Origin: a phage
Assembly (NCBI GenBank): GCA_021146965.1
Contig: GCA_021146965.1_4847.1
Direction: 5' to 3' (one strand)
DNA: 46,431 bases
The notes below the pieces were generated by a model. That model was not told the origin of the DNA. It did not search any database and was given only the letters and a program-made list of their open reading frames with translations. Position numbers and translations under genes: made by a program. This document shows positions 1,541-42,346 of this stretch, in pieces; position 1 is the stretch's first letter; every line of letters starts with the position of its first letter.

Positions 1541-1616
1541 GGTGGACACGGACGAATTTGAACCTTCAATCAGCCGATTATTAGTCGGTTGCTTTAACCA
1601 ATTAAGCTACGCGTCC
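1540..1616 (-). tRNA. tRNA-like gene (77 nt, encoded CCA; anticodon loop CUAAUAA, anticodon reads AAU, identity uncertain)
   Basis: minus-strand sequence GGACGCG-TA-GCTT-AATTGGTTA-AAGC-A-ACCGA-CTAATAA-TCGGC-TGATT-GAAGG-TTCAAAT-TCGTC-CGTGTCC-A-CCA folds as cloverleaf: 7-bp acceptor stem (one G-U), 4-bp D stem with GG in D loop, T8/A9, U33, T-loop TTCAAAT; one mismatch each in anticodon and T stems. Confidence 0.45.
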
Positions 1617-10541: not shown

Positions 10542-12809
10542 ATGGCTACCACACCAACCAATAAACCAATTCCGTCAGAAGACCCGCGCGACCTGAAGTT
10601 TAATGCTGGTAAAATTGACGAAGTTGTCAACTCTGACAATCACTACTACACCGATCGCTTTGGTCATCGCCGCTTTACAATTGCAGGATTCCAACACACC
10701 GCAGAAGAAGCAATTCGTAACTATGGCTACATCACAATGGATAGCTTCGAGGATGGCGCGACGCTGACGTTACCGAATCAGGTTTTGCGCTATGAAGCTA
10801 CTGGAGAATATTACCGCTGGGATGGTGAATTCCCTAAAACAGTCGCTTCTGGTTCAGCTCCTGCATCCGCTGGCGGTGTTGGAATTGGGAAATGGTTGAG
10901 TGTTGGTGATGCAGCCCTGCGCAGCCAGATTTCAGACCCGGATGGTGCGTCCAGTTACCCTGAATTGCAGATGGCAAGATGGCGTGATGAGGGTGATGTT
11001 CGAGGCTGGGGTGCTAAAGGGGATGGTGTAACGGATAGTACGGAGAATATAGCTGCTTCACTAAATTCTCAAAAAGCTGTCGTAGCATCAGACGGTGTAT
11101 TCTCTAGTTCTGGTATTAATAGTAATTACTGTAACTTAGACGGTAGAGGCAGTGGTGTACTAAGTCACCGTTCAAGTACAGGTAACTACTTAGTATTTAA
11201 CAATCTACGCTCAGGTCGCTTAAGTAATATTACGGTAGAAAGTAATAAGGCGACCGATACCACTCAAGGGAAGCAGGTATCTCTTGCTGGTGGTAGTGAT
11301 GTTACTATAAGTGATGTTAATTTCTCAAACGTTAAGGGCATTGGTTTCAGTTTAATCACATACCCTAATAATGCACCCTCTGATGGGCTTATGATTAAAG
11401 GCATTCGAGGTAGCTACTCCGGCTATGCTACTAATAAGGCGGCTGGATGCATACTTGCTGATTCCTCGGTTAACTCCCTCATAAATAACGTCATTGCTAA
11501 GAACTACCCTCAGTTCGGGGCTGTAGAACTGAAAGGTACAGCCAGTTATAACATAGTCAGCAATGTTATAGGGGCAGACTGCCAGCATGTAACTTACAAC
11601 GGTACAGAAGGGTCAATAGCTCCCTCTAACAACCTTATCAATGGGGTAGTGGCTAATAATCCTAAATATGCAGCGGTTGTTGCAGGCAAAGGTAGTGCCA
11701 ACTTAATCTCAGATGTGCTTGTAGATTTCTCAATCTCTGATGCTAGGCAGGCTCACGGTGTTACAGTAGAAGGTTCTGATAACGTCATAAATAATGTGCT
11801 TATGTCAGGATGTGATGGTAATAACTCTTTAGGGCAAGCTCAGACTGCTACAATTGCGCGCTTTATAGGTACAGCTAATAACAACTATGCGTCTGTATTT
11901 CCTAGCTACAGTGCTACAGGTGTTATTACTTTCGAATCAGGTTCTACCCGTAACTTCGTAGAGGTAAAGCATCCGGGAAGGAGAAACGACCTTCTCAGTA
12001 CTGCTAGTGCTATTAGCGGTGCAGATACTATTGACGGCACTAATAATAGCAACGTAGTGCACGCCCCTGCATTAGGGCAGTACATAGGCAGTATGTCCGG
12101 TAGGTTCGAATGGCGGATTAAGTCCATGTCACTTCCGTCAGGCGTTCTTACCTCGGCTGATAAGTACAGAATGCTTGGGGATGGTGCTGTGTCATTAGCT
12201 GTAGGAGGGGGTACTTCTTCTCAAGTTCGCCTATTTACTTCTAATGGTACTTATCGGACAGTATCACTCACCAACGGTAACGTGCGTCTTCCTACCAGTA
12301 GCACAGGTTATTTGCAGTTAGGTTCTGATGCAATGACCCCAGATAGTACTAATACATACGCATTAGGTTCCGCAAGTAGAGCATGGTCTGGCGGTTTTAC
12401 TCAATCAGCATTCACTGTTGTCTCAGATGCTAGGGATAAAACAGAGCCTCTTAATATCTCAGATGCTTTACTGGATGCTTGGTCTGAAGTTGACTTTGTG
12501 CAGTTTCAGTACTTGGACCGAATTGAGGAGAAGGGTGCAGACTCAGCTAGATGGCACTTCGGCATCATCGCTCAGCGAGCTAAGGAGGCATTCGAACGTC
12601 ACGGTATAGATGCACATCGCTATGGCTTCCTGTGCTTCGACAGTTGGGATGATGTATACGAGGAAGATGCCAATGGCTCTCGTAAACTGATTACACCAGC
12701 AGGTTCCCGCTACGGTATTCGTTACGAGGAAGTACTGATATTAGAGGCTGCGTTGATGCGGCGTACTATTAAGCGTATGCAGGAAGCATTAGCTGTTATG
12801 TCTAAGTGA
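10542..12809 (+). CDS. tailspike protein with pectate-lyase-like beta-helix and C-terminal intramolecular chaperone (peptidase S74-type) domain
   Basis: 755 aa; GWGAKGDGVTD motif typical of right-handed beta-helix depolymerases; C-terminal ~130 aa (SDARDKTEPL...WHFGIIAQRAKEAF...YGIRYEEVLILEAALMRR) matches the auto-cleaving chaperone domain of endosialidase/T5 L-shaped fibre type. Confidence 0.8.
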   Translation: MATTPTNKPIPSEDPRDLKFNAGKIDEVVNSDNHYYTDRFGHRRFTIAGFQHTAEEAIRNYGYITMDSFEDGATLTLPNQVLRYEATGEYYRWDGEFPKTVASGSAPASAGGVGIGKWLSVGDAALRSQISDPDGASSYPELQMARWRDEGDVRGWGAKGDGVTDSTENIAASLNSQKAVVASDGVFSSSGINSNYCNLDGRGSGVLSHRSSTGNYLVFNNLRSGRLSNITVESNKATDTTQGKQVSLAGGSDVTISDVNFSNVKGIGFSLITYPNNAPSDGLMIKGIRGSYSGYATNKAAGCILADSSVNSLINNVIAKNYPQFGAVELKGTASYNIVSNVIGADCQHVTYNGTEGSIAPSNNLINGVVANNPKYAAVVAGKGSANLISDVLVDFSISDARQAHGVTVEGSDNVINNVLMSGCDGNNSLGQAQTATIARFIGTANNNYASVFPSYSATGVITFESGSTRNFVEVKHPGRRNDLLSTASAISGADTIDGTNNSNVVHAPALGQYIGSMSGRFEWRIKSMSLPSGVLTSADKYRMLGDGAVSLAVGGGTSSQVRLFTSNGTYRTVSLTNGNVRLPTSSTGYLQLGSDAMTPDSTNTYALGSASRAWSGGFTQSAFTVVSDARDKTEPLNISDALLDAWSEVDFVQFQYLDRIEEKGADSARWHFGIIAQRAKEAFERHGIDAHRYGFLCFDSWDDVYEEDANGSRKLITPAGSRYGIRYEEVLILEAALMRRTIKRMQEALAVMSK

Positions 12810-13429: not shown

Positions 13430-14470
13430 TTAAAATCCTTCAATTGGAGTTGGTTTATGTTCGGTTTTTGTTTCTTCCTGCTGTTCTGGCTGATGATGTT
13501 GCGGTTTAGCCAGTTTTGCAGGGTTGAAATTATCCTGTGGAGTTATTACCACAGGAGGTAATTGCTCATCATTGATAAAAGACTCAATGCGATCATATTC
13601 AGCAGCAGAAGCAGCGAGAGAAGGCCATATTGCACGAATCTTATCTTTCAGGTTATCAGGTATTGATTTCGCCTCTTCCTTCAGTCCTTCCATTCCTTTT
13701 GCTGCTGAAAGCTGAAGTCGTGAGCGCCATGATTCAAACTCTTCGTCAACTTTAACACCAGAGTCCACCCATTTGATGAGTCCTCGACCATGAGCCTCTC
13801 CAATATAGCCATGACGAACGCTTTCACGACCAGACTCAAAGAAGATGGGGCGTAGCTCTTCTGGTAATTTGGTGAACTCCTGAATTTTTCCTCCATCGTG
13901 CATCATCATGCTCACGGTCATCTCGAACATGAAATCTTTCTCGCACACTGGCTGTAACCCAAGTGATACAGGTTCCTTCGGGTTTGCGAAGTCAGTTTTC
14001 TGGCGAGCGCGAAGACAGACAATGATATGCATATTGCTTTGTAGCATGGCATTCATGAACTTCTTGTGTTCAGCTTTGGCGCGCTTCCAGTCAGCCATCT
14101 TTTTACCGTTAAGCAGCGGCTTTTCAGCAATCTCCGTGCAACTGCCTTCACCTTCCCATTCATGCGAACCTGAATCAATAACAAGAACCTTAACGCCGGC
14201 AGCCTGAAACTCTTCAATGGCCTGACGGTAACGGGCCGGGCTGAATGGAGCATACATATCAGCGTGCAGGAATTTGCCATCAAGGATGTTTGAGTACAGG
14301 CGACCGCGACCATTTTCAGTATCAAGGAATCCGATTTCTTCTGGTGAGTCAACCATCCCGCGAGCCAGCTTAAGTGCGCTGTATGTTTTTCCGCTACCAG
14401 ACTGGCCTGAAATACCGATGACTACACGAGAACCTGAACGCTCTGCTGGTTTAATATTGAGAATACCCAT
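13430..14470 (-). CDS. Sak4-like RecA-fold ATPase (ssDNA annealing/recombination)
   Basis: Walker A GISGQSGSGKTYSA near N-terminus, ~340 aa, adjacent to ssb; start placed at ATG 14470 (GAGGTG 6 nt upstream) rather than GTG 14479. Confidence 0.7.
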   Translation of the reverse strand: MGILNIKPAERSGSRVVIGISGQSGSGKTYSALKLARGMVDSPEEIGFLDTENGRGRLYSNILDGKFLHADMYAPFSPARYRQAIEEFQAAGVKVLVIDSGSHEWEGEGSCTEIAEKPLLNGKKMADWKRAKAEHKKFMNAMLQSNMHIIVCLRARQKTDFANPKEPVSLGLQPVCEKDFMFEMTVSMMMHDGGKIQEFTKLPEELRPIFFESGRESVRHGYIGEAHGRGLIKWVDSGVKVDEEFESWRSRLQLSAAKGMEGLKEEAKSIPDNLKDKIRAIWPSLAASAAEYDRIESFINDEQLPPVVITPQDNFNPAKLAKPQHHQPEQQEETKTEHKPTPIEGF

Positions 14471-14487
14471 TTTCATCACCTCACTAA

Positions 14488-15426
14488 TTATAAATTAAAC
14501 TGTTTTTTGAACCATTCAGGCGTTTCCATTTCTATGACAGGATTACCCATTGAATAACCGGGCCACGAATTGGCTTTTTTGCACGCCTTGTAAATTTCCA
14601 TAGCGCCATGCAACTGAATTCGACCGATGCGTAATTGCTCTTCAGTCAAGCGAATTAACGCAGGAATAAATGGTGCTTTCTTTTCCTGAACGAGAAGATT
14701 AACAGAGCGTGGCGCATGACCATATGCCGCAACAAACATGTCGTGCTGCATCGCCATTTTCATAAAGTACCCAAGTCTCGCAGCATGACGGAAAAACTCT
14801 TCTGGCTTGGCGCTCACCGCTGTTTTGTAGTCGATTATGTCGCCACCTTTGGTAAGGCAGTCAAAGCGAACTTTTGCCTTCTCTCCGTTAAGTTCACCTA
14901 GAATTGACACTTCAGCATAAGCACCAGCGAGAAGACTGCTGTAATAGCTGTTTGCGTGGATTACAGCACGCATTTGCTGAATAGCGTCATAATCACCACC
15001 TTCCAGCATTTGCTTTCCTACAGCAGCTTTTTCAGCCTCTTCACGGATGACATCGTAAATTTTCACTGGCTCGCCAGTCGCCTGGATGATTTTGATCACC
15101 TCAGCTTTCGACTTTCCTGAAAGTCCTTTGATGCCTCGTTCTTTTGCCCATGAGTTCATATCACTTACAGTAACAAGCAGGTCATCACCAAAATCTTCTT
15201 TGGTTGGCATTCGTGCATATTCAGCATCAAAACGCTCTGGTTCAAGCAACGCAGTATGGCTACCTGTACCGAATATAAGAGCTTTTGATTGCTCATCCTC
15301 TTCGTCTTTGTATCGCCATGCTGCCGGGCATCTGTCAAGTATATTCCATAATCCAGAACCATTAATGTGCTCTGTGTCAGCATGATAATCCTGATTGCTT
15401 AATTCATTGTTGAAATAAACTCTCAT
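14488..15426 (-). CDS. PD-(D/E)XK family exonuclease (RecB/Cas4-like)
   Basis: ~310 aa with D...D-x-K-type nuclease signature (GGDIIDYKTAVSAKPEEF) and position in recombination module; start ATG 15426/15429. Confidence 0.6.
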   Translation of the reverse strand: MRVYFNNELSNQDYHADTEHINGSGLWNILDRCPAAWRYKDEEDEQSKALIFGTGSHTALLEPERFDAEYARMPTKEDFGDDLLVTVSDMNSWAKERGIKGLSGKSKAEVIKIIQATGEPVKIYDVIREEAEKAAVGKQMLEGGDYDAIQQMRAVIHANSYYSSLLAGAYAEVSILGELNGEKAKVRFDCLTKGGDIIDYKTAVSAKPEEFFRHAARLGYFMKMAMQHDMFVAAYGHAPRSVNLLVQEKKAPFIPALIRLTEEQLRIGRIQLHGAMEIYKACKKANSWPGYSMGNPVIEMETPEWFKKQFNL

Positions 15427-15428
15427 CA

Positions 15429-16055
15429 TCACTCTCCGTGGTTACAGAATTCTTTATGCATCTTTTCTCTGAATTTCATCACAGACAACCTCGCTCTCTC
15501 AATATCATTGAATAACCCAAGATGGTATCTTTTCCCGTTAACATCACAGTAAGCATGCCACTTTTTAACCTGTTTTTGCCAATACACACCTTTAACTCCT
15601 GATGTGTTATTTTTTGGTTTTTTAGCGTTATACTGGTTCTGCATATTTGTTGCGATTCTTAAGTTGCAAATCCTGTTATCGTCACGCACACCGTTAATGT
15701 GATCAATTTGACCTTCAGGCCAGAAACCATAATAAATCAACCATACCAAGCGATGCGCGTAGTATCTTTTATTATTTATGCTTATCTCTATGTATCCGTT
15801 ATGTTTTTTCCTGCCAGCGACACTACCCTTTCTTACACCTCCACCCGTCTTATTTCTAATGAAAACCCCTGTTTCATGGTTGTAATTTAAGCTATCCAAA
15901 ACAACATAACGTGGTATTCTTTTTCTTCTTCCTATGGTGTTTGACTCTGCACTTCCCTGAGCAAAATCTTGCTTTTGCAGTTCCGATAAACTCATTTCCA
16001 CAAACCTCGCACTTCTTAACGGTGATAGCCATTTCTTACCCTCTATTGTAATCAT
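15429..16055 (-). CDS. HNH homing endonuclease with AP2 DNA-binding domain (paralog 1 of 4)
   Basis: IDHINGVRDDNRICNLR HNH motif plus AP2-like SGVKGVYWQKQVKKWHAYCDVNGKRYHLGLF; paralogous to 25547..26059, 34748..35260, 36012..36542. Confidence 0.8.
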   Translation of the reverse strand: MITIEGKKWLSPLRSARFVEMSLSELQKQDFAQGSAESNTIGRRKRIPRYVVLDSLNYNHETGVFIRNKTGGGVRKGSVAGRKKHNGYIEISINNKRYYAHRLVWLIYYGFWPEGQIDHINGVRDDNRICNLRIATNMQNQYNAKKPKNNTSGVKGVYWQKQVKKWHAYCDVNGKRYHLGLFNDIERARLSVMKFREKMHKEFCNHGE

Positions 16056-16100
16056 TTTCCGTTACATTGCAAGTAACTTTTATTTGTTACTAACGATACA

Positions 16101-16526
16101 TTAATCTACGTCATCCAGCAAGCCAAAATAGAAAAGCGTGGCTTTTTTTAATTCATCAAGCCCATAAGCTATGGCAGCATAATGACCAAGCCTGCACATC
16201 TCTGTTAGCACTGCTGATTGATCCTTGCTCACCCTGCTTTTGCTTTTATCGCGGCGCTTTGCTTCAATCATCCCACAACTGTGATTTACCCCCGGAGTCA
16301 TTATCACATTGTCGCCTATACCAGCCTTAACCCCCATCTTCTGGCGCTTCAGCACAAACTGCACCCTGCTTGATGTGCCAGTTTCGTTGGGTACATGAAA
16401 CCACAGAACATCAGGGAAGCGGTGTTGCATCCATGTTCCATAACCCATCTGGTCAGTCTCCTCTTTTGGGCATTCTCCTCGATAACCGCTATCAAATACC
16501 CATATACCGCTATCAAGCTGCTTCAC
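16101..16526 (-). CDS. VRR-NUC domain nuclease
   Basis: 141 aa; GMIEAKRRDK...SKDQSAVLTEMCRLGHYAAIAYGLDEL fits VRR-NUC (D..EAK then Q..w...G) pattern; adjacent to SF2 helicase as commonly seen; GTG start with AAGGA RBS. Confidence 0.6.
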   Translation of the reverse strand: MKQLDSGIWVFDSGYRGECPKEETDQMGYGTWMQHRFPDVLWFHVPNETGTSSRVQFVLKRQKMGVKAGIGDNVIMTPGVNHSCGMIEAKRRDKSKSRVSKDQSAVLTEMCRLGHYAAIAYGLDELKKATLFYFGLLDDVD

Positions 16527-24326: not shown

Positions 24327-24480
24327 ACAGAAAGTCTGGCAACTCGCAAAGCAGCACGAATTAGACGATTTCATCGAGAAGGTTGCAAAGACATTCCCTG
24401 ACGCGCTTGAAGTCGTTCATGTGCAGACGCGAAATGAAAATGCATGGTGCTACACAAAAAATCATACAAATGGTAGATGA
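24313..24480 (+). CDS. hypothetical protein
   Basis: internal ATG of track ORF 24247..24480; overlaps neighbours as in coupled operon. Confidence 0.3.
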   Translation: MQTTKQKVWQLAKQHELDDFIEKVAKTFPDALEVVHVQTRNENAWCYTKNHTNGR

Positions 24481-24907
24481 AATGAAGCTAACAAAAAAAC
24501 AACGCGAAGAGCTACGCATGAAGTTCGGTGGTCGCTGTGCTTATTGTGGGTGTGAGCTACCCGAGAAAGGTTGGCATGCAGACCATGTTGAACCAGTGCT
24601 ACGTAAATCTGAGCAGTGCATGAAGGCAGCGGCGAAAGGGATTTTCAAGCTGAAGGCAACCGGTGAGCTATATCGACCAGAAGCCGAGCGACTGGAAAAC
24701 CTTTACCCTGCGTGCGCCCCCTGCAATCTGATGAAAACTTCCTATTCCCTGGAAATGTTCAGGAAGCAGGTATCTCTTCAGGTTGCTCGTGGGCGCAAAA
24801 GCAGCATGAATTTCCGCACTGCAGAGCGTTTCGGTCTTATCGCCGTGGTGGAGAGACCAGTTGTTTTCTGGTTTGAGAAATACCAGGAAGAGAACGAAAA
24901 AAAATAA
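24470..24907 (+). CDS. HNH endonuclease (classical zinc-finger HNH, packaging-associated type)
   Basis: CAYCGCEL...WHADHVEPV...NLYPACAPCNLMK; located just upstream of terminase genes as for cos-phage HNH proteins; start uncertain (24434/24470). Confidence 0.7.
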   Translation: MVDEMKLTKKQREELRMKFGGRCAYCGCELPEKGWHADHVEPVLRKSEQCMKAAAKGIFKLKATGELYRPEAERLENLYPACAPCNLMKTSYSLEMFRKQVSLQVARGRKSSMNFRTAERFGLIAVVERPVVFWFEKYQEENEKK

Positions 24908-25003
24908 ATGTGTTTATGATGCTCTGTTGGCAAGCGCGATAATGATGGTGTACAATAAACGCACAACCACCATTTGTGAGTTACTCAAAGAACACGAAAA
25001 GAC

Positions 25004-25444
25004 ATGGCGAATCCAAATCCAAAACACAAGTTTTCCTCTACAAATCAACCGCCTCCGCGCGGTAAGAGTTATCGCACAGTGCTGCTTGAGGCGCTTCGTG
25101 CTGCAAATACACCGATGAATGAGATTGAATTCGTCACGTATTACATCAATAGGGCCATGACATGCGAAGACGCTCAGGCAACTGGTATGCTTCGAGAGAT
25201 ATTCCTGCGGCTCAACCCAATTCCTAAGCCTGTAGCTCCTCCTGTGGAGTTTGACTTCCCTGCTGACGGAACTCCGGTTCAGAAAATGGATGCAATCATC
25301 AAGGGTGTCTCCACTGGCGTCGTGCCTGCTGACATCGGCAAGATGATGGCTGACATTATCAAGTCTGGCCTTGATATTCAGGAAATCACCGAACTCGCAG
25401 CGCGACTTGAGCGACTGGAGAAATTGCTGGAACAGCAACAGTAA
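25004..25444 (+). CDS. terS: putative terminase small subunit
   Basis: 146-aa ORF immediately upstream of terminase large subunit region; assigned by position and size. Confidence 0.4.
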   Translation: MANPNPKHKFSSTNQPPPRGKSYRTVLLEALRAANTPMNEIEFVTYYINRAMTCEDAQATGMLREIFLRLNPIPKPVAPPVEFDFPADGTPVQKMDAIIKGVSTGVVPADIGKMMADIIKSGLDIQEITELAARLERLEKLLEQQQ

Positions 25445-25546
25445 CTGATTTATAATAATTAATGCGGCAAAGGGTAGCTCCCTGCCCGGATTGGTCTCCG
25501 GGCTGCCGCATCCATCCAGTGACCGCCTTTAACCGAGGATTCAATA

Positions 25547-26059
25547 ATGCGACCCTTAAAAGAAGAAAAACTCACGCAAGACAGGCTGAAAGAGTTGCTG
25601 CATTATAACCATGATACTGGTATTTTCACATGGGTTCAGCGCGCCTCAAAAAGCGTAAGAGTTGGTAATTCAGCTGGCAGTAAGAATAAGTCAGGCTATA
25701 TAGATATACGCATCGATAAGTCTTTACACAAAGCTCATCGGCTTGCGTGGCTTTACATTTATGGTGTGTGGCCCAATGGGAAAATAGATCACATCAATAA
25801 CGTGAAGACAGATAACAGAATCTGCAACCTGAGAGAAGCAAGCAATAATGAAAACGGATGGAATGCTGGTAAACCATCGACAAATACGTCAGGAGTAAAA
25901 GGTGTGAGTTGGGATGCAGAGAAAAATAAATGGAAGGCGCATTGCAGGGTTTTTGGGAAAAAATATACAGTAGGTAGGTTTTCATCAAAAGAATATGCTG
26001 AGAGAGCCGTGGCGGAGTTCAGAGAGAAACATCACGGGGAGTTTTTTAATCATGGCTAG
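25547..26059 (+). CDS. HNH homing endonuclease with AP2 domain (paralog 2 of 4), inserted between terS and terL
   Basis: IDHINNVKTDNRICNLREA motif plus AP2-like SGVKGVSWDAEKNKWKAHCRVFGKKYTVGRF; 3' end overlaps terL start. Confidence 0.8.
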   Translation: MRPLKEEKLTQDRLKELLHYNHDTGIFTWVQRASKSVRVGNSAGSKNKSGYIDIRIDKSLHKAHRLAWLYIYGVWPNGKIDHINNVKTDNRICNLREASNNENGWNAGKPSTNTSGVKGVSWDAEKNKWKAHCRVFGKKYTVGRFSSKEYAERAVAEFREKHHGEFFNHG

Positions 26060-27476
26060 AAAAAGACTCTCAAGTGTGGCAATCGAAAAACTTGAACAGG
26101 CGGTTGGAAACTCAACTTCAAAGCCTGAGTCTGCTGTATTTGGCATTGTTAACAAACTGCTTGCCGATGGTACGCCTAATGTTATAAAGCGCCTAAAAAT
26201 GACATCAACAGGCGTATCTGAAACAAACGAAGAACCAACAATCCTCATTCCCGAGAGAATGGAATTACTGCTTTATCCTCGTCGTTTCAAAGTGTTCTAT
26301 GGTGGTAGGGGGAGCGGAAAGACGGCTAACGTTGTTTCTTACCTCATCGAAAAGGCAAGATTCCGTAACAGTCGCGTCGGATGCTTTCGTGAGATACAGA
26401 ACTCAATCAAAGAATCAAGCTATGCCGAACTGGTTGATGAGATAAACAGGAAAGGACACACTCAGGAATATCGTTGCGTGGATGGTGAAATAACCCACCA
26501 TTCAACGAGGTCAAAGTTTGTTTTCCGTGGTTTGTGGCGAAATATAACCGCCATTAAGGGTATGGCTGGCCTTACAGATGTATTCTGTGAAGAATCAGAA
26601 AATATCAGCCAGGTTTCATGGGATACGCTAATCCCAACAGTCCGCGCCGCTGGCTCTGAAATTATTATTGTTTTTAACCCAAACAAAGAGACGGACCCGA
26701 CATGGACTAACTTTGTTGCGCCTTATATTGACAAGATGGTTGACGGCATATATCAGGATGATGACATCGTTGTTGTTAATGTTAATTACATCCACAACCC
26801 GTGGTTCACGGAAGAACTTAAGCAGCACATGAACCAGATGAAAGCTGTGGATTATGATCGCTACCTTTGGGTGTATGAAGGCTTATTCAACAAGCGGTCT
26901 GACGAAGCTGTTCTCGGGGGGAAATGGCAAACACTCGACTTTGAACCATCTCCTGAGTGGGGTGGGCCTTACTACGGCATTGACTTTGGTTTTTCTCAGG
27001 ATGCAACAGCAGCAACTGAATCATATGTAGAAGATTTGGGTGATGGACGAAGAAACCTGTATATCTATCGTGACTTTGCAAAGGTTGGCCTTGAGATAAC
27101 TGACACGCCGGAAGCGATGCGCTCAGCATTCCCAAATTCAGAGAAGTACAGATGGTATGGGGATTGCGCAAGACCTGAAACAATAAGCCATATACGACGC
27201 TCTGGATTCGATATTCATCCGTGCGCAAAATGGCCGGGGAGCATTGAGGACGGTATTACGTGGCTGCGTGGGTGTGACAGGATTTACGTGCACTCAAGAT
27301 GCAGGCACGTCATTGAAGAGATGACAATGTACAGCTATAAGGTGGACAAATTAACAGGTAACATACTCCCTGATATAGTTGATAAATACAATCACGCGAT
27401 TGATAGTTTACGCTATGGACTTGGAGATCACATCGTTCAACGCGGTAGCGGGATGCTAATCCGGCGCAGGCGATAA
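26052..27476 (+). CDS. terL: terminase large subunit
   Basis: Walker A FYGGRGSGKT; ~475 aa; start placed at ATG 26052 (track ORF begins 25995 inside HNH gene). Confidence 0.85.
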   Translation: MARKRLSSVAIEKLEQAVGNSTSKPESAVFGIVNKLLADGTPNVIKRLKMTSTGVSETNEEPTILIPERMELLLYPRRFKVFYGGRGSGKTANVVSYLIEKARFRNSRVGCFREIQNSIKESSYAELVDEINRKGHTQEYRCVDGEITHHSTRSKFVFRGLWRNITAIKGMAGLTDVFCEESENISQVSWDTLIPTVRAAGSEIIIVFNPNKETDPTWTNFVAPYIDKMVDGIYQDDDIVVVNVNYIHNPWFTEELKQHMNQMKAVDYDRYLWVYEGLFNKRSDEAVLGGKWQTLDFEPSPEWGGPYYGIDFGFSQDATAATESYVEDLGDGRRNLYIYRDFAKVGLEITDTPEAMRSAFPNSEKYRWYGDCARPETISHIRRSGFDIHPCAKWPGSIEDGITWLRGCDRIYVHSRCRHVIEEMTMYSYKVDKLTGNILPDIVDKYNHAIDSLRYGLGDHIVQRGSGMLIRRRR

Positions 27477-28568: not shown

Positions 28569-30915
<2,347 letters not shown>

Positions 30916-34206: not shown

Positions 34207-34471
34207 TATGATCCTCCACAATCCGCACCAGTGAGCACTCAAGATTCGGTGCATTGTAATTACCAGCCAGAAACAGCACGCTACCAGTGCTAATAAGCAC
34301 CTGCTTCTCGTTCGCCTGCGACAGATTCTGCACGATGAATTGCGCTGTTTCTGTGCCGATTTTCAGCACTGCGCTGCCGTCGCTGTTCAGTGATACAAGT
34401 TGTGCGGAAGTGTCAGTAATGTTGGTGAAGTTCGCGTTTCGCTGCGCGATTGTGATGTCGCAAAAAGACAT
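34196..34471 (-). CDS. hypothetical protein
   Basis: 91-aa ORF in leftward cassette. Confidence 0.4.
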   Translation of the reverse strand: MSFCDITIAQRNANFTNITDTSAQLVSLNSDGSAVLKIGTETAQFIVQNLSQANEKQVLISTGSVLFLAGNYNAPNLECSLVRIVEDHNGE

Positions 34472-34773
34472 TATTTAATCTCTCCGTTCAGTTCATTAAC
34501 AATTAACGTTGCATAGCCAGCAATATCTTTCCAGCTGTCATCATAAGTCGGGTCGCCATTCAGAATGCGCCCAATCTTGTGCTGAATCATGTCGAGCGCC
34601 TCGCGTTGACTTGGTGTGAGATTGCGCCAGCCATCTACCTTGCGCATCACATCTTTCAACTCCTGCATAATTTCAGCGCCGTCTTTGAATTTACCGTATC
34701 GACTACCGCGTTCGGTGATGAGTCGCTCTGTTGCGTCAGTATGGCGCTTATCGCCCGTGATTTGTGAACTCAT
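34471..34773 (-). CDS. hypothetical protein
   Basis: 100-aa ORF, ATG start. Confidence 0.45.
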   Translation of the reverse strand: MSSQITGDKRHTDATERLITERGSRYGKFKDGAEIMQELKDVMRKVDGWRNLTPSQREALDMIQHKIGRILNGDPTYDDSWKDIAGYATLIVNELNGEIK

Positions 34774-35260
34774 TGTGATGCATTCTCCTGAATTCTTTTA
34801 TTTTTGCTTCTGCTTCTCTTATGTCGGAAAAGTAACCAACTGTGAATCTTTTGCCATTTACTCCAACTCTTGCATGCCACTTGTTGTGCGATGAACTCCA
34901 GTTAACCCCCTTGATACCGCTAGTGTTGTTTTTGTTCATTGCTTTGTTGTGGCTATTCTCAAATTTGCTGGCCTCCCTTAAATTGCACGCCCTGTTGTCA
35001 TTGCGAATGCCATTAATGTGGTCAATCATTTCACTTGCTGGCGCGCCATGAATGCATATCCATGCCAATCTGTGAGCAAGAAAAGCCCTACCGCAAAGAA
35101 TTATTTGCACATATCCATCTGGCTTTAAGTAGCCAGCCACACTCCCTTTTTCTGCAATCCTATTCCTTGTCTTTAGCCATTTAAATTCCCCAGTTAGTGG
35201 ATTGTAGTAAAGGTAACTCAATATAAACTCCCTACTCGGCTCATCTCTCCTATGCCTCAT
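34748..35260 (-). CDS. HNH homing endonuclease with AP2 domain (paralog 3 of 4)
   Basis: IDHINGIRNDNRACNLREA plus AP2-like SGIKGVNWSSSHNKWHARVGVNGKRFTVGYF. Confidence 0.8.
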   Translation of the reverse strand: MRHRRDEPSREFILSYLYYNPLTGEFKWLKTRNRIAEKGSVAGYLKPDGYVQIILCGRAFLAHRLAWICIHGAPASEMIDHINGIRNDNRACNLREASKFENSHNKAMNKNNTSGIKGVNWSSSHNKWHARVGVNGKRFTVGYFSDIREAEAKIKEFRRMHHNEFTNHGR

Positions 35261-35463
35261 TTCTCATCCTCTTTCATTGTCACCCTATTATTCTCGTCAA
35301 CACTGAAGTTGGCCCGAATCAAATCATACATATCTTCCTTAGGCATATCAGCCAGCGCCACATAGCAACGGGCGAAGTAGCGAACATCACGGAGTGTCAG
35401 CGGTTGTCGCTTCTCCACAATGCTGGTGATAATGTCCATCGGCTCGCGTCGTGGTCTTGGCAT
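35257..35463 (-). CDS. hypothetical protein
   Basis: 68-aa ORF, ATGA-coupled to HNH gene downstream. Confidence 0.4.
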   Translation of the reverse strand: MPRPRREPMDIITSIVEKRQPLTLRDVRYFARCYVALADMPKEDMYDLIRANFSVDENNRVTMKEDEK

Positions 35464-35490
35464 ATTTACTACTCCTTCTCGAAAAACATC

Positions 35491-35535
35491 TTGACGTTTC
35501 TACATCATTTAGTCAATACTTGTTGACGTAGATTG
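35491..35535. promoter_or_regulatory. divergent promoter/operator region with tandem TTGACG... motif copies
   Basis: TTGACGTTTCTACATCA (35491-35507) and TGTTGACGTAGATTG (35521-35535) between divergent genes 35257..35463(-) and 35563..35760(+). Confidence 0.45.
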
Positions 35536-35562
35536 TACCACAACGGAAAAGGTGATGTGGAA

Positions 35563-35760
35563 ATGCGATACAAAGAAATAGCAGCGAGATACCAGAAGGA
35601 AGTTCGCGAGGTTATGGAAATCCTTAACGTTCGCGAGGATACCATTAAGTTTGTGGAAACCGCCATGTGTTCACTGGCGCTTGAAGCGGAGGTTGCGGGT
35701 CGTGAAAAGGCTGACGAACTTATATCTGCGGTGGTTTATAGTTCAACCAGTAACGGTTGA
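35563..35760 (+). CDS. hypothetical protein
   Basis: internal ATG of track ORF 35533..35760 with AAAGGTG RBS. Confidence 0.4.
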   Translation: MRYKEIAARYQKEVREVMEILNVREDTIKFVETAMCSLALEAEVAGREKADELISAVVYSSTSNG

Positions 35761-35820
35761 AGATGAAGGTTATCTGTGCGTTGAGCACGTTGTTATCAAA
35801 TTCTACGGGAGAAATTATAA

Positions 35821-36015
35821 ATGGCGCATGACGAACTGTACGAAGAATCGTTAATCCAGAGGTTGAATGAAGTTGAGCGCACTCGCGAATGGCTGGAGTG
35901 CGAGTTACGAGAAGTGCGCAACCGCCTGCAACGCAAGCGCAGTCAGCAAAGAGATGTCATCGACTGGTCTGGGGGTACACCTAAATTTAACAATCTGGGA
36001 GAATGGTTGAAATGA
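35821..36015 (+). CDS. hypothetical coiled-coil protein
   Basis: 64-aa ORF. Confidence 0.4.
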   Translation: MAHDELYEESLIQRLNEVERTREWLECELREVRNRLQRKRSQQRDVIDWSGGTPKFNNLGEWLK

Positions 36016-36542
36016 GCAACATTAGTAAGGAAAGCATTTTAAAGTTCCTCCAGCATGATGAAAATACAGGAAACTTTCTATGGATTGATAATTTCTCAAG
36101 AAAATCAAAGAAAGGGAAGGTGGCTGGAGGTATTACATCGCATGGGTATTGGAGAATTCAACTCCCCATCGGGAGGTTTTACGCACACAGAATGGCGTGG
36201 ATTGTTTGCAATGGAGATATACCAAACGGATATGAGATTGATCACATAAATGGGAACAAGAAAGATAATCGCATCAGCAACCTAAGATTGGTCACAAGAG
36301 GTCAAAATGTTATGAATGTAGGCGTGAAAAACAATAATACAAGCGGAGTTAAGGATGTTGTTTGGGACTCTTCGCGAGAAAGGTGGAGGGTTCAAATTAC
36401 AGCCAATGGCAAGCATTATTATGGAGGTAGATTCTCGTCAATAACACAAGCAAAAGAGGAGAGGAACAGGCTCATAAAGATGGTTCACGGGAAATTTTTG
36501 AATACAAAAGGTGAGCAATATGACACTACTAATGAACGATGA
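36012..36542 (+). CDS. HNH homing endonuclease with AP2 domain (paralog 4 of 4)
   Basis: IDHINGNKKDNRISNLRLV plus AP2-like SGVKDVVWDSSRERWRVQITANGKHYYGGRF; ATG 36012 with GGGAGA RBS. Confidence 0.8.
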   Translation: MSNISKESILKFLQHDENTGNFLWIDNFSRKSKKGKVAGGITSHGYWRIQLPIGRFYAHRMAWIVCNGDIPNGYEIDHINGNKKDNRISNLRLVTRGQNVMNVGVKNNNTSGVKDVVWDSSRERWRVQITANGKHYYGGRFSSITQAKEERNRLIKMVHGKFLNTKGEQYDTTNER

Positions 36543-36756
36543 GAAATTACTTGAATGCCCGTTTTGTGGTTGTGATGACGTAAGTGTTATTGATGACGGC
36601 GAATGGTTGCACGTTGAGTGCGGAGATTGTTTTTGCCGCACTGACTCGTATTGCTGCGCATCCACGGCAATGAAGAAATGGAACACAAGAGGTGGACACC
36701 TCTACACTTCCGACGACTTCAATCAGGCAGCAGAGGAGCGTGATTATGGACTATAA
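36520..36756 (+). CDS. Lar-family restriction alleviation protein (zinc ribbon)
   Basis: LECPFCGCDD...HVECGDCFCRT...AMKKWNTR pattern matches the Lar restriction-alleviation family as recalled; start 36520 or 36532. Confidence 0.5.
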   Translation: MTLLMNDEKLLECPFCGCDDVSVIDDGEWLHVECGDCFCRTDSYCCASTAMKKWNTRGGHLYTSDDFNQAAEERDYGL

Positions 36757-41529: not shown

Positions 41530-41556
41530 AAAAGGGGGTTTATCCCCCTTCTTTGT
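41530..41556. terminator. bidirectional rho-independent terminator
   Basis: AAGGGGG-tttat-CCCCCTT hairpin flanked by A-run and T-rich tract, between convergent MCP (+) and 41540..42346 (-). Confidence 0.6.
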
Positions 41557-42346
41557 ATCTAATTTCACCGTAAACCATGTACTGTAACATGTAACAAAAC
41601 TCCCATTCCGTCATATCTGTCCGTAGCCACTTCCTGTTCTTCTTGTAATTGTACTCCGCCAGCTCCGCTTTTAAATTGTGAAGAGCATTAACCAGTTCTG
41701 GATATACGAGGTTATTCTTAACAAACCAGTTGACAGATAAAATATGGTCAATATGCCAATTATTGCGGTCATCAAAACTCATCCATGGAAGCATGGTTGA
41801 TTTTATATGCTTAATGAAATCATCCTTTGAGTACCCGAGAACATCATCTACTGTTCTATCAAGCGCAATGTCAGATACTCTCATATCAAGCCGCTCAAGC
41901 ATTTTTCTTAGGAACACGTGGTGTGGGTGCTTCTTTTGCCATTGCCTGACATTATCCAGAGCCTTTTTATTGCCTTTCTCTGAGTAGTACCATCTGCGAT
42001 AAGCTTCCCTTTTCTTTTGTAAAAACTCCTCCTTTTTCTCTGGATTCTCGTTAAGCCTTTGCATCTTCCTTTTGTTGTACTCCTGTTGTGATTGTTTTCT
42101 TTTCTTTTTGTACTCGCTGTTATCCTTGTTTTTCTGCCACTCCTTTTTTCTGTACTCACTTTCCTTGCGTTTGCGCTCCTCTGTTGTTCTCTGCTTCCTT
42201 GTTCTTTCGTATACGCAATGCTTGCATCCGCCTGATGCTGTAAAAAACACAGTTCCACCACATACAGAGCATGGAATCCATTCACACACAAATTGCTTCA
42301 GTCCAGCAACCCTTGCTTCTTGCGCGGCTTCTTTTCTTGTTTTCAT
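41540..42346 (-). CDS. zinc-ribbon protein with Lys/Glu-rich low-complexity region and C-terminal HNH-like motif
   Basis: N-terminal CEWIPCSVCGG...CKHC zinc ribbon; ~100-aa K/R/E-rich segment; C-terminal NWHIDHILSVN...NALHNL reminiscent of HNH core; AGGAG RBS. Confidence 0.5.
   Translation of the reverse strand: MKTRKEAAQEARVAGLKQFVCEWIPCSVCGGTVFFTASGGCKHCVYERTRKQRTTEERKRKESEYRKKEWQKNKDNSEYKKKRKQSQQEYNKRKMQRLNENPEKKEEFLQKKREAYRRWYYSEKGNKKALDNVRQWQKKHPHHVFLRKMLERLDMRVSDIALDRTVDDVLGYSKDDFIKHIKSTMLPWMSFDDRNNWHIDHILSVNWFVKNNLVYPELVNALHNLKAELAEYNYKKNRKWLRTDMTEWEFCYMLQYMVYGEIRYKEGG

Follow-up and report, generated by a model that had tools for sequence, protein, structure and literature searches.

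The phage genome analysed here, a stretch of 46,431 nt referred to as the window (contig GCA_021146965.1_4847.1 of GenBank assembly GCA_021146965.1), is Skatevirus-like and contains four diverged genes, A to D, each of which joins an HNH nuclease to an AP2 DNA-binding domain. We consider it highly probable that these belong to the HNH_3 plus AP2 class ("HNN-AP2," I-HmuI-like) of free-standing homing endonuclease genes and that each was acquired separately. We infer from sequence that the products would be active enzymes, that each would nick, or cut both strands of, an exact target sequence, and that homing may still be active.

Four genes at separate loci

A preliminary description of the window, made from the letters alone, had listed four open reading frames of one architecture, and all four are present: A (15429–16055, minus strand, 208 aa), B (25547–26059, plus strand, 170 aa), C (34748–35260, minus strand, 170 aa), and D (36012–36542, plus strand, 176 aa). 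Gene A is flanked by the VRR-NUC and exonuclease VIII genes and B by terS and terL; C and D belong to accessory operons that are divergent. For A, an internal Met at 15995 would give a protein of 188 aa, and it is this start that other annotators have chosen. For D, the start at 36012 is preferable to the longest-frame start at 36003 because it overlaps the stop codon of the gene upstream (ATGA). Each gene is a separate frame, lying between or overlapping adjacent frames, and an Rfam scan of the window found only a tRNA and no intron; the four genes are free-standing.

The GC content of A, B, C, and D is 0.381, 0.417, 0.421, and 0.394, respectively, against a window mean of 0.465, which ranks them between the 2nd and the 11th percentile of 520-bp windows. 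The AT-richness ascribed to them is clear in A and D and modest in B and C. The four insertion sites showed no conserved sequence in common, and a consensus scan for promoters of C and D returned 6 sites, with 6.0 expected in shuffled sequence. Matches by tblastn to the family elsewhere in the window were short (E > 0.01), and none is credible as a degenerate relic.

Domains and catalytic residues

All four products pass the threshold of the HNH_3 profile (PF13392), with 42.1–71.9 bits (60 bits for A) compared with a gathering score of 24.8, and all four match PHROG 99 with E-values of 1e-58 to 1e-70 (1e-69 for A); D also matches I-HmuI at E 2e-4. For C, the profile matches are accompanied by structural agreement: the beta-beta-alpha-metal fold superposes on a solved HNH_3, I-HmuI-like member. 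The AP2 domain (PF00847) scores 26.1, 22.1, 23.0, and 17.5 bits in A to D, below the curated gathering score of 33.3, with E-values of 1e-5 to 5e-3. A precomputed PF00847 match is present in many homologues, and the characteristic fold, a three-stranded antiparallel sheet on one helix, superposes on solved AP2 domains. The assignment of both domains is borne out, the HNH by profile and the AP2, whose Pfam score is too low, by fold.

An alignment of 56 homologues that includes A to D, numbered here by gene C, has invariant residues at H63, R64, D80, H81, N83, D88, N89, N93, R95, N102, and N105. The catalytic Asp-His pair and the metal-binding Asn residues (D80, H81, N93, and N102) are thus conserved in all four, and the catalytic residues of the family align to D74/H75/N96 of I-HmuI. 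I-HmuI is an HNH nicking endonuclease, which nicks one strand. The signature IDHIN...DNR.CNLR, described for all four genes, is found in A, B, and C but not in D, which reads DNRISNLR. The boxes that define the HNN-AP2 class (HRLAWL, WP, D/H, DNR, NLRE, and EN) are present and CxxC zinc dyads are absent; D departs slightly, with HRMAWI, IP, NLRL, and QN.

The nuclease genes are under purifying selection, with dN/dS of 0.10 for A versus SCNJ1-C, 0.18 for A versus KFS gp51, 0.24 for B versus KFS-SE2, and 0.27 for B versus Skate. The ratio of A versus NX263 was discarded, since a 1-nt indel in the NX263 copy deprives it of meaning. These values and the invariant catalytic residues indicate that the nuclease is kept by selection.

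Sporadic presence and empty sites

Of about 175 related phage records, 9 have a near-identical full-length copy of A, 25 of B, 3 of C, and 1 of D, the last being ZCEC08. Comparison with relatives that lack individual copies revealed empty sites with exact boundaries, so that the four are not universally conserved core genes and show the combination of sporadic presence and identifiable empty sites that marks free-standing homing endonuclease genes. Across 7 related genomes, family members were found at 10 or more different sites, and one site can hold family lineages that are only 39–46% identical.

The preliminary description spoke of insertion. Presence and absence agree with this, but pure insertion does not describe most of the events. 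The empty alleles at A, C, and D hold unrelated sequence of 155–400 bp (short frames or the 5′ part of a gene), so that these three sites appear to have exchanged one cassette for another, as could also happen through general recombination at gene boundaries.

The co-conversion tract of gene A

The A cassette (15427–16100) fills the entire space from the VRR-NUC stop to the exonuclease VIII start, where related genomes with an empty site have unrelated frames of 58 or 91 aa that gave no Pfam match. ST1UNAM, from which A is absent, matches the window at 100% as far as 14601 and again from 16420 but at only 85–93% in between, whereas HC6, which has A, differs by only 4 mismatches across 13557–16439. 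Gene A arrived on this co-conversion tract (14602–16419), which also took in parts of the exonuclease VIII gene (~825 bp) and the VRR-NUC gene (~323 bp) and lies within a background that is otherwise 100% ST1UNAM-like. Against NX263, the gene is 96–99% and the flanks are 76–91% identical. HNH genes that other phages carry at a different site have the same 5′ module as A, which shows that ectopic movement occurs.

The genome as a whole is a mosaic of 100% and ~90% blocks, and many of the breakpoints are not at nuclease genes. One could therefore suppose that gene boundaries are recombination hot spots in which the HNH-AP2 genes are, or have become, inactive cargo and that their patchiness is a product of ordinary mosaic recombination, and the unrelated small frames, or different N-terminal gene segment, of the empty alleles do resemble ordinary cassette exchange. 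We regard this explanation as unlikely, given that the catalytic residues are invariant with dN/dS of 0.1–0.27, that the same family recurs at so many sites, that B is far more conserved than its immediate flanks (see below), and that local divergence from the near-identical ST1UNAM is confined to patches in which, or exactly at which, the two genes that it lacks (A and D) are found. Transfer with co-conversion of flanking markers is seen in the tract of A and in the flanks of B, with weak evidence for C and a single comparison for D. Repeated invasion, as proposed in the preliminary description, is supported by the tract of A, by the discordance between gene and flanks at both B and A, and by closest relatives that reside in different phages.

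Gene B at the terminase junction

The B cassette (25442–26051, 610 bp) sits exactly at the terS/terL junction, and the stop codon of B overlaps codons 2–3 of terL. In seszw, terS overlaps terL and no HNH gene lies at the junction; the frame that occupies the empty site of swi2 has no Pfam match. Between genomes (25 records), B is 95–100% identical where the adjacent terS/terL DNA is 71–78% identical, and ~100 bp flanking B, beside that 71–78% DNA, are at 94–95%.

Genomes with an occupied site, and only these, have a recoded 5′ end of terL (26058–26079, plus strand), with 9–10 differences in 22 nt, mostly synonymous. The variant AGAAAAAGACTCTCAAGTGTG is common to the window, KFS-SE2, Skate, and Sf11, and the variant CGTAAACGCCTNTCCGCGCTG is common to the empty genomes seszw and swi2. 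The recoded stretch is a candidate target or immunity determinant of B, and we predict that B would cleave the seszw/swi2 terS/terL junction at GAGCAGCAGAATGGCTCGTAAACGCCTNTCCGCGCTGGC.

The location of B raises the question of whether it is selfish at all. It adjoins both terminase genes, it is translationally coupled to terL, and its site is filled in many relatives, even by a 46% identical lineage with the same terL variant (Sf11), so that B could be a domesticated accessory factor needed for DNA packaging in the manner of HK97 gp74, a precedent discussed in PMC10448857. This explanation is even less likely than passive carriage: seszw, with a nearly identical TerS protein, and swi2, with homologous terminase genes, are viable with terS abutting terL and no HNH gene between them; B belongs to the HNH_3-AP2 family and not to the PF01844 type of gp74; and the identity pattern is one of horizontal movement independent of the terminase genes. 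Gene B, and especially E (a PF01844-type gene described below), do resemble gp74-type packaging HNH genes in adjoining the terminase genes. Conservation in all relatives that share the terminase type, which would be expected of a gp74-type gene, was not found, B being absent from seszw and swi2 and E from five relatives. Because these relatives have homologous terminases, neither B nor E can be obligatory for packaging in this group.

A milder form of co-option is a speculative idea to which we give little weight. The Sf11 lineage shares with B the same junction and the same recoded terL start, and this, together with the coupling to terL, leads us to consider that a homing gene B might have been partly co-opted, for instance in modulating terL expression or packaging-related cleavage, or might act as a weapon that excludes HNH-less relatives during co-infection. 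More broadly, the nuclease family might set the boundaries of the Skatevirus mosaic blocks.

Genes C and D and their neighbours

Gene C overlaps the upstream frame (35257–35463) by ATGA, and the block that contains it (~34735–35271) takes the place of the 5′ part of the downstream gene. That gene (34471–34773, minus strand) matches positions 74–163 of the 163 of PHROG 17775 and PF19905 (30.4 bits); it has an intact DUF6378 domain but is without the ~70-aa N-terminal domain of its swi2, Sf11, and Skate homologues. The lost N terminus (MKKWKYLKGYE... in these three phages) was considered as a NUMOD4-like relic and rejected, there being no Pfam match at E ≤ 1. After the near-identical copies, the next homologue of C is 51% identical. 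The gene is 96–100% and its flanks are 88–97% identical between genomes, a difference that only weakly suggests co-conversion.

The D cassette (~36016–36666) lies at an ATGA stop/start junction and occupies the start position that empty genomes use for a Lar-like restriction-alleviation gene. In the window this downstream gene (36520–36756, plus strand; PHROG 599) has a new start codon within the 3′ end of D. It was co-inherited with D, as 100% identity to ZCEC08 stops at ~36750, and 100% identity with ST1UNAM, which lacks D, ends at D. Co-conversion at D is suggested by comparison with one other genome. The divergent Lar-like gene was also considered as a D-specific immunity signature; this was rejected because its zinc-ribbon region is hypervariable in all relatives, including those without the HNH gene.

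Relationships among the four genes

That A to D differ at the amino acid level holds: pairwise identity is 37–50%, with almost no similarity in DNA. The term paralogous, applied to them earlier, is correct for membership in one family but not for recent duplicates. Each of the four has a 92–100% identical counterpart at the same site in other phages, and the nearest relatives are in HC6/Bas77 for A and in ZCEC08 for C and D, with none within the genome itself. Recent duplication and transposition inside this genome, which the common architecture and family and the ectopic movement of the 5′ module of A might suggest, is effectively refuted by the low identity, the same-site counterparts elsewhere, and the foreign flanks with which A came in. 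The degree of divergence points instead to old family members that were acquired separately.

Two further candidate nuclease genes

The preliminary description counted two more HNH-type genes, E and F, of which the first is supported and the second only weakly so. Gene E (24470–24907, plus strand), just upstream of terS, encodes an HNH protein of another family (PF01844, 25.4 bits with a cut-off of 21.4; PHROG 2118, E 2e-58). It is an indel (24453–24915) in a small frame, with an imperfect 9-bp repeat on both sides, and is absent from KFS-SE2, Sf11, swi2, Skate, and seszw.

Gene F (41540–42346, minus strand) lies downstream of the major capsid gene as an accessory indel and encodes a putative nuclease of 268 aa that matches PHROG 1035, "endonuclease VII," at E 4e-19. 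The protein has a CxxC...CxxC pair in its N-terminal part and a DH...N...N block in its C-terminal part, and the W-H-I-D-H...N...N block is invariant among 14 homologues. Searches gave no Pfam match and no PDB match by sequence or profile, and the AlphaFold model is unreliable across the motif region (pLDDT < 50). These motifs weakly suggest a nuclease, possibly of the His-Me finger type. The six genes A to F together make up 3,429 nt, or 7.4% of the genome.

Proposed mechanism

We propose that each of the A to D products is a small, probably monomeric, site-specific DNase. A beta-rich N-terminal region would be followed by the active site, a beta-beta-alpha-metal (His-Me finger) fold with D80-H81...N93...N102 in C numbering, and then by a C-terminal AP2 domain, a three-stranded sheet plus helix, that would read nearby DNA. 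Upon co-infection with a related phage without the given gene, the enzyme would nick or cut the empty allele near the insertion point, and recombination templated by the genome that has the gene would repair the break. Among the products of the phage are exonuclease VIII, a recombinase, an SSB, VRR-NUC, and a RusA-like protein. The recipient would thereby gain a copy of the nuclease gene along with part of its flanks. The genes appear to have no promoter of their own and are carried in host operons by overlapping stop and start codons.

Relation to known systems

The HNH-AP2 element is an already described and very common kind, ordinary in phage genomes. Dispersed, multicopy HNN-AP2 genes were reported in the Xanthomonas phages Xp10, OP1, and Xop411 (Lee et al. 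2007, PMC2248197), and such genes were noted too for T1, Rtp, T5, RB16, and RB43 (PMC2248197). The genes of the window share with the Xanthomonas set the two-domain architecture, the boxes HRLAWL, WP, DH, DNR, NLRE, and EN, the lack of CxxC zinc dyads, and the dispersal of diverged copies at varying sites (those phages have 6–8 HNH genes per genome), and Xp10 gave 4 tblastn matches to C with up to 43% identity. The phage group and hosts are different here, however, and the window is without degenerate or truncated relics, in contrast to the decay series of the Xoo phages. The sampling of ~175 relatives also reveals precise empty sites and a co-conversion tract, unlike in the Xanthomonas case.

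I-HmuI itself (SPO1, PDB 1U3E) is intron-encoded and has helical C-terminal DNA-binding modules rather than AP2, whereas A to D are free-standing. HNH-AP2 endonucleases have been proposed as the origin of the AP2/ERF domain (Magnani et al. 2004, as cited in PMC10448857 and PMC2248197). The AP2 domains of plant ERF1, TEM1, and WRI1 and of apicomplexan ApiAP2 proteins belong to transcription factors, whereas those of A to D are attached to a nuclease and fall below the Pfam gathering threshold.

The "IPA-HNH" homing endonuclease genes of vibriophage ICP1 were described at the boundaries of genetic exchange (Barth, Dunham and Seed 2023, PMC10448857). As in ICP1, nuclease genes here adjoin essential genes (terminase, replication) at the edges of high-identity tracts, distinct homing genes are tolerated at one locus, and domains or modules are swapped between them. 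The HNH_3 Pfam profile recognizes A to D as canonical members but not the ICP1 IPA-HNH domains, which have diverged too far from it, and no multi-gene "HEG island" was demonstrated in the window. With the window, the published view of homing endonuclease genes as markers of genetic exchange boundaries between phages gains a further case.

Beyond correct annotation, the importance of these genes is small. Gene A, with its co-converted flanks of 825 and 323 bp, provides a clean natural homing footprint in the densely sampled Skatevirus group, and the concrete target sequence predicted for B means that the enzymes could be characterized cheaply. Knowing that the nuclease genes are probably dispensable selfish DNA is useful for phage engineering, genome reduction, and the design of therapeutic phages. 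In seszw, a family member at another site has been deleted in a viable engineered mutant (PMC9825161). We considered the genome-reduced mutants of seszw as a deletion of a terS–terL HNH gene and set this aside: the wild type has none there, and the deleted HNH gene lies upstream of the portal gene.

Domain composition and relatedness of the HNH-AP2 genes

The window spans 46,431 bp at 46.5% GC and represents all or nearly all of a siphovirus genome from the Skatevirus/Cedarrivervirus/Swiduovirus group of phages of Salmonella, Escherichia, Shigella, and Klebsiella, with 172-179 related records found by Megablast. It is a mosaic in which long blocks of ~100% identity to Salmonella phage ST1UNAM and Escherichia phage ZCEC08 alternate with blocks of ~90%. 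The four homing endonuclease genes of the preliminary description are present at the coordinates and on the strands that it gave: A (15429-16055, minus strand, 208 aa), B (25547-26059, plus strand, 170 aa), C (34748-35260, minus strand, 170 aa), and D (36012-36542, plus strand, 176 aa). They had also been called AT-rich, and their GC content of 38-42%, compared with 46.5% in the window, lies in the 2nd to 11th percentile of 520-bp windows, a bias that is strong for A and D and modest for B and C. The genes are free-standing, as Rfam finds no intron in the window.

All four proteins exceed Pfam's curated threshold for HNH_3 (PF13392) and belong to PHROG 99, 'HNH endonuclease'; the AP2 domain (PF00847) scores 17.5-26 bits, below the cut-off of 33.3. 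Because the AP2 scores are subthreshold, the structure of C was predicted from a 56-sequence alignment. The model is confident (pLDDT 93.9) and its C-terminal 55-60 residues form three strands and a helix, in agreement with a Foldseek search. By sequence, the only solved relative is I-HmuI, and the counterparts of its D74, H75, and N96 are invariant in 56/56 aligned sequences. The A-D proteins carry the published 'HNN-AP2' boxes HRLAWL, WP, DNR, NLRE, and EN, and contain no zinc-binding cysteine dyads.

The four proteins are 37-50% identical to one another with almost no similarity in their DNA, and each has counterparts that are 92-100% identical at the same site in other phages, which makes A-D old members of one family rather than recent duplicates. 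Decayed relics of the family are not detectable elsewhere in the window. Values of dN/dS of 0.10-0.27 point to purifying selection on the HNH-AP2 genes. Among ~175 related records, near-identical full-length copies of A, B, C, and D occur in 9, 25, 3, and 1, respectively. A census of seven related genomes places the family at 10 different sites at least, and site B in Sf11 and site C in KFS-SE2 hold lineages with only 39-46% identity to the copy in the window. The family is very common, with tblastn using C returning 4,069 copies spread across 2,739 of 50,697 phage records, four of them in Xp10.

Insertion sites

The A cassette takes up the entire gap from the VRR-NUC stop to the exonuclease VIII start; in empty genomes (those lacking the HNH gene), unrelated ORFs of 58 or 91 aa lie there. 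The window is 100% identical to ST1UNAM up to 14601 and again from 16420 on, with 85-93% identity across the intervening stretch that contains A; HC6, also a carrier of A, differs from the window by only 4 mismatches over 13557-16439. A thus entered an ST1UNAM-like background together with flanks of ~825 bp and ~323 bp, a classical co-conversion tract. Compared with NX263, the gene is 96-99% identical and its flanks 76-91%, a discordance also seen for B. A itself is mosaic. Over its 5' module (the upstream region and first ~45 codons; 15995-16096), A has a DNA identity of 84-90% to the HNH genes that separate primase from helicase in KFS-SE2, swi2, Skate, and Vi II-E1, an arrangement found in at least 35 related records, whereas the protein beyond the first ~45 codons is only ~52% identical to the HNH proteins of that site. 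Other annotations start A at an internal Met at 15995, and in the NX263 copy a 1-nt indel falls within the 15995-16096 stretch; the true start of A and the role of its extension are therefore uncertain. A small inverted repeat, GTTACATTGCAAGTAAC, lies within the 41 nt upstream of A.

In seszw and swi2, terS directly abuts or overlaps terL. In the window, a 610-bp insert (25442-26051) sits exactly at this junction, and the B stop codon overlaps terL codons 2-3. The terL start is recoded in all occupied genomes, including Sf11 with its divergent HNH gene (AGAAAAAGACTCTCAAGTGTG), compared with both empty genomes, seszw and swi2 (CGTAAACGCCTNTCCGCGCTG), by 9-10 differences in 22 nt that are mostly synonymous. 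This pattern would fit an empty junction that is the target and an occupied allele that is immune; co-inheritance from one ancestral insertion would look identical. When the window is compared with KFS-SE2 or Skate, identity is 95-100% for B and only 71-78% for the adjoining 3' end of terS and initial 300 nt of terL, with the remaining terL at 87-96%. The stretch separating the terS stop from B holds a branched GC-rich stem-loop at 25462-25511 (25440-25550 has an MFE of -34.5 kcal/mol, z = -1.8), which moves with the B cassette, with 94% identity to KFS-SE2. No T-run follows it, and the ribosome-binding site of B is outside it.

C and D form ATGA overlaps with their upstream genes, and no promoter signal above chance was found for either. 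The C block displaces the 5' part, ~70 codons, of a DUF6378 gene, leaving the DUF6378 domain intact. In the window this gene (34471-34773, minus strand) is reduced to the bare domain; the swi2, Sf11, and Skate homologues carry a further 70-110 aa at the N terminus, the part displaced by C. The insertion point of D is an ATGA stop/start overlap, and D occupies the start position that a Lar-like restriction-alleviation gene has in empty genomes; in the window, that gene has a new start within the 3' end of D. Identity of 100% to ST1UNAM stops exactly at D, and 100% identity to ZCEC08 runs ~200 bp past it. The zinc-ribbon part (36575-36680) of the Lar-like gene (36520-36756) is hypervariable in all relatives with both ends conserved, possibly a result of diversifying selection against the restriction systems of hosts.

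Homing and alternative explanations

A-D are intact, selected nuclease genes that moved with their flanks, and homing is the best explanation for them. In a co-infection with a relative, the nuclease would nick or cut the relative's empty allele, and recombination functions of the phage itself would mend the break with the occupied genome as template. By the relatives' annotations, exonuclease VIII, recombinase, SSB, and VRR-NUC genes adjoin A. Cleavage, strand specificity, and target sequences are what we infer.

It is less likely that the genes are passive cargo of ordinary mosaic recombination, since the catalytic site has been maintained. That B serves as a packaging cofactor, as its place between the terminase genes might invite, is also less likely, given that HNH-less terS/terL junctions are viable in seszw and swi2. 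Recent intragenomic duplication is less likely in view of the low similarity shared by the four copies. A viable CRISPR-reduced mutant of seszw cleanly lacks a member of the family that sits at another site; this shows dispensability for that relative's copy, not for A-D themselves.

The preliminary description was correct overall and well read, and its finding is already known in kind. A 2007 paper described dispersed multicopy HNN-AP2 genes, at positions that differ from one related phage to the next, in Xp10, OP1, and Xop411, and mentioned them for T1, Rtp, T5, RB16, and RB43 (PMC2248197); proteins combining HNH and AP2 form an established family of homing endonucleases (PMC10448857, PMC2248197); such genes have been tied to boundaries of genetic exchange (PMC10448857); and the genes found here already carry the annotation HNH (homing) endonuclease in ZCEC08, ST1UNAM, HC6, and Bas77. 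The residual value lies in a clean, natural footprint of co-conversion and a prediction of the target site that can be tested.

Additional nuclease genes and variable sites

Two further HNH-type genes, E and F, had brought the count to six nucleases, together 7.4% of the window. Five (A-D and E) are well supported, and F is plausible. Both E and F are indels, and four or five of the examined relatives lack them. Gene E (24470-24907, plus strand) is an HNH gene of another family than A-D (PF01844, 25.4 bits against a cut-off of 21.4; PHROG 2118). Its insert (24453-24915), just upstream of terS, lies within a small ORF; empty genomes read ATGCGTGGTGCTATGCTGGCAAGCG there, and in the window the insert is bounded by the imperfect repeat ATGGTGCTA/ATGATGCTC. 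The gene E ORF appears to borrow the first codons of the host ORF. KFS-SE2, Sf11, swi2, Skate, and seszw lack it. For gene F (41540-42346, minus strand), the sole match is PHROG 1035 ('endonuclease VII'), with no Pfam or PDB match and an unreliable structure model. The 268-aa protein has a CxxC...CxxC N terminus, a long Lys/Glu-rich helical middle, and an invariant C-terminal W-H-I-D-H...N...N block; it has only 14 homologues in a large protein database. F follows the major capsid gene as an accessory indel, and its ZCEC08 allele is only 72-79% identical within a region otherwise at 85-95%.

One more variable gene site of the group lies between SSB and recombinase, where ZCEC08 (34910-35410) and HC6 (924-1424) each have a 501-nt gene, annotated 'HNH endonuclease' in the former and 'hypothetical protein' in the latter, and the window has none; the ZCEC08 gene gives no blastp match to A-D. 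In the portal gene (28750-30000), the mosaic pattern flips: identity is 64-68% to ZCEC08, ST1UNAM, and swi2 compared with 88-94% to KFS-SE2, Sf11, and Skate, and the neighboring DNA is nearest ST1UNAM and ZCEC08. Over its distal, C-terminal two-thirds (10750-12750), a tailspike or tail-fibre gene (ORF 10542-12809) matches none of the six full relatives compared at the DNA level, indicating a swapped receptor-binding module. The lone tRNA gene (1543-1616, minus strand; Rfam, 56 bits) lies where relatives have one or two tRNAs of differing identity, and in KFS-SE2 and swi2 an HNH-AP2 gene adjoins these tRNAs.
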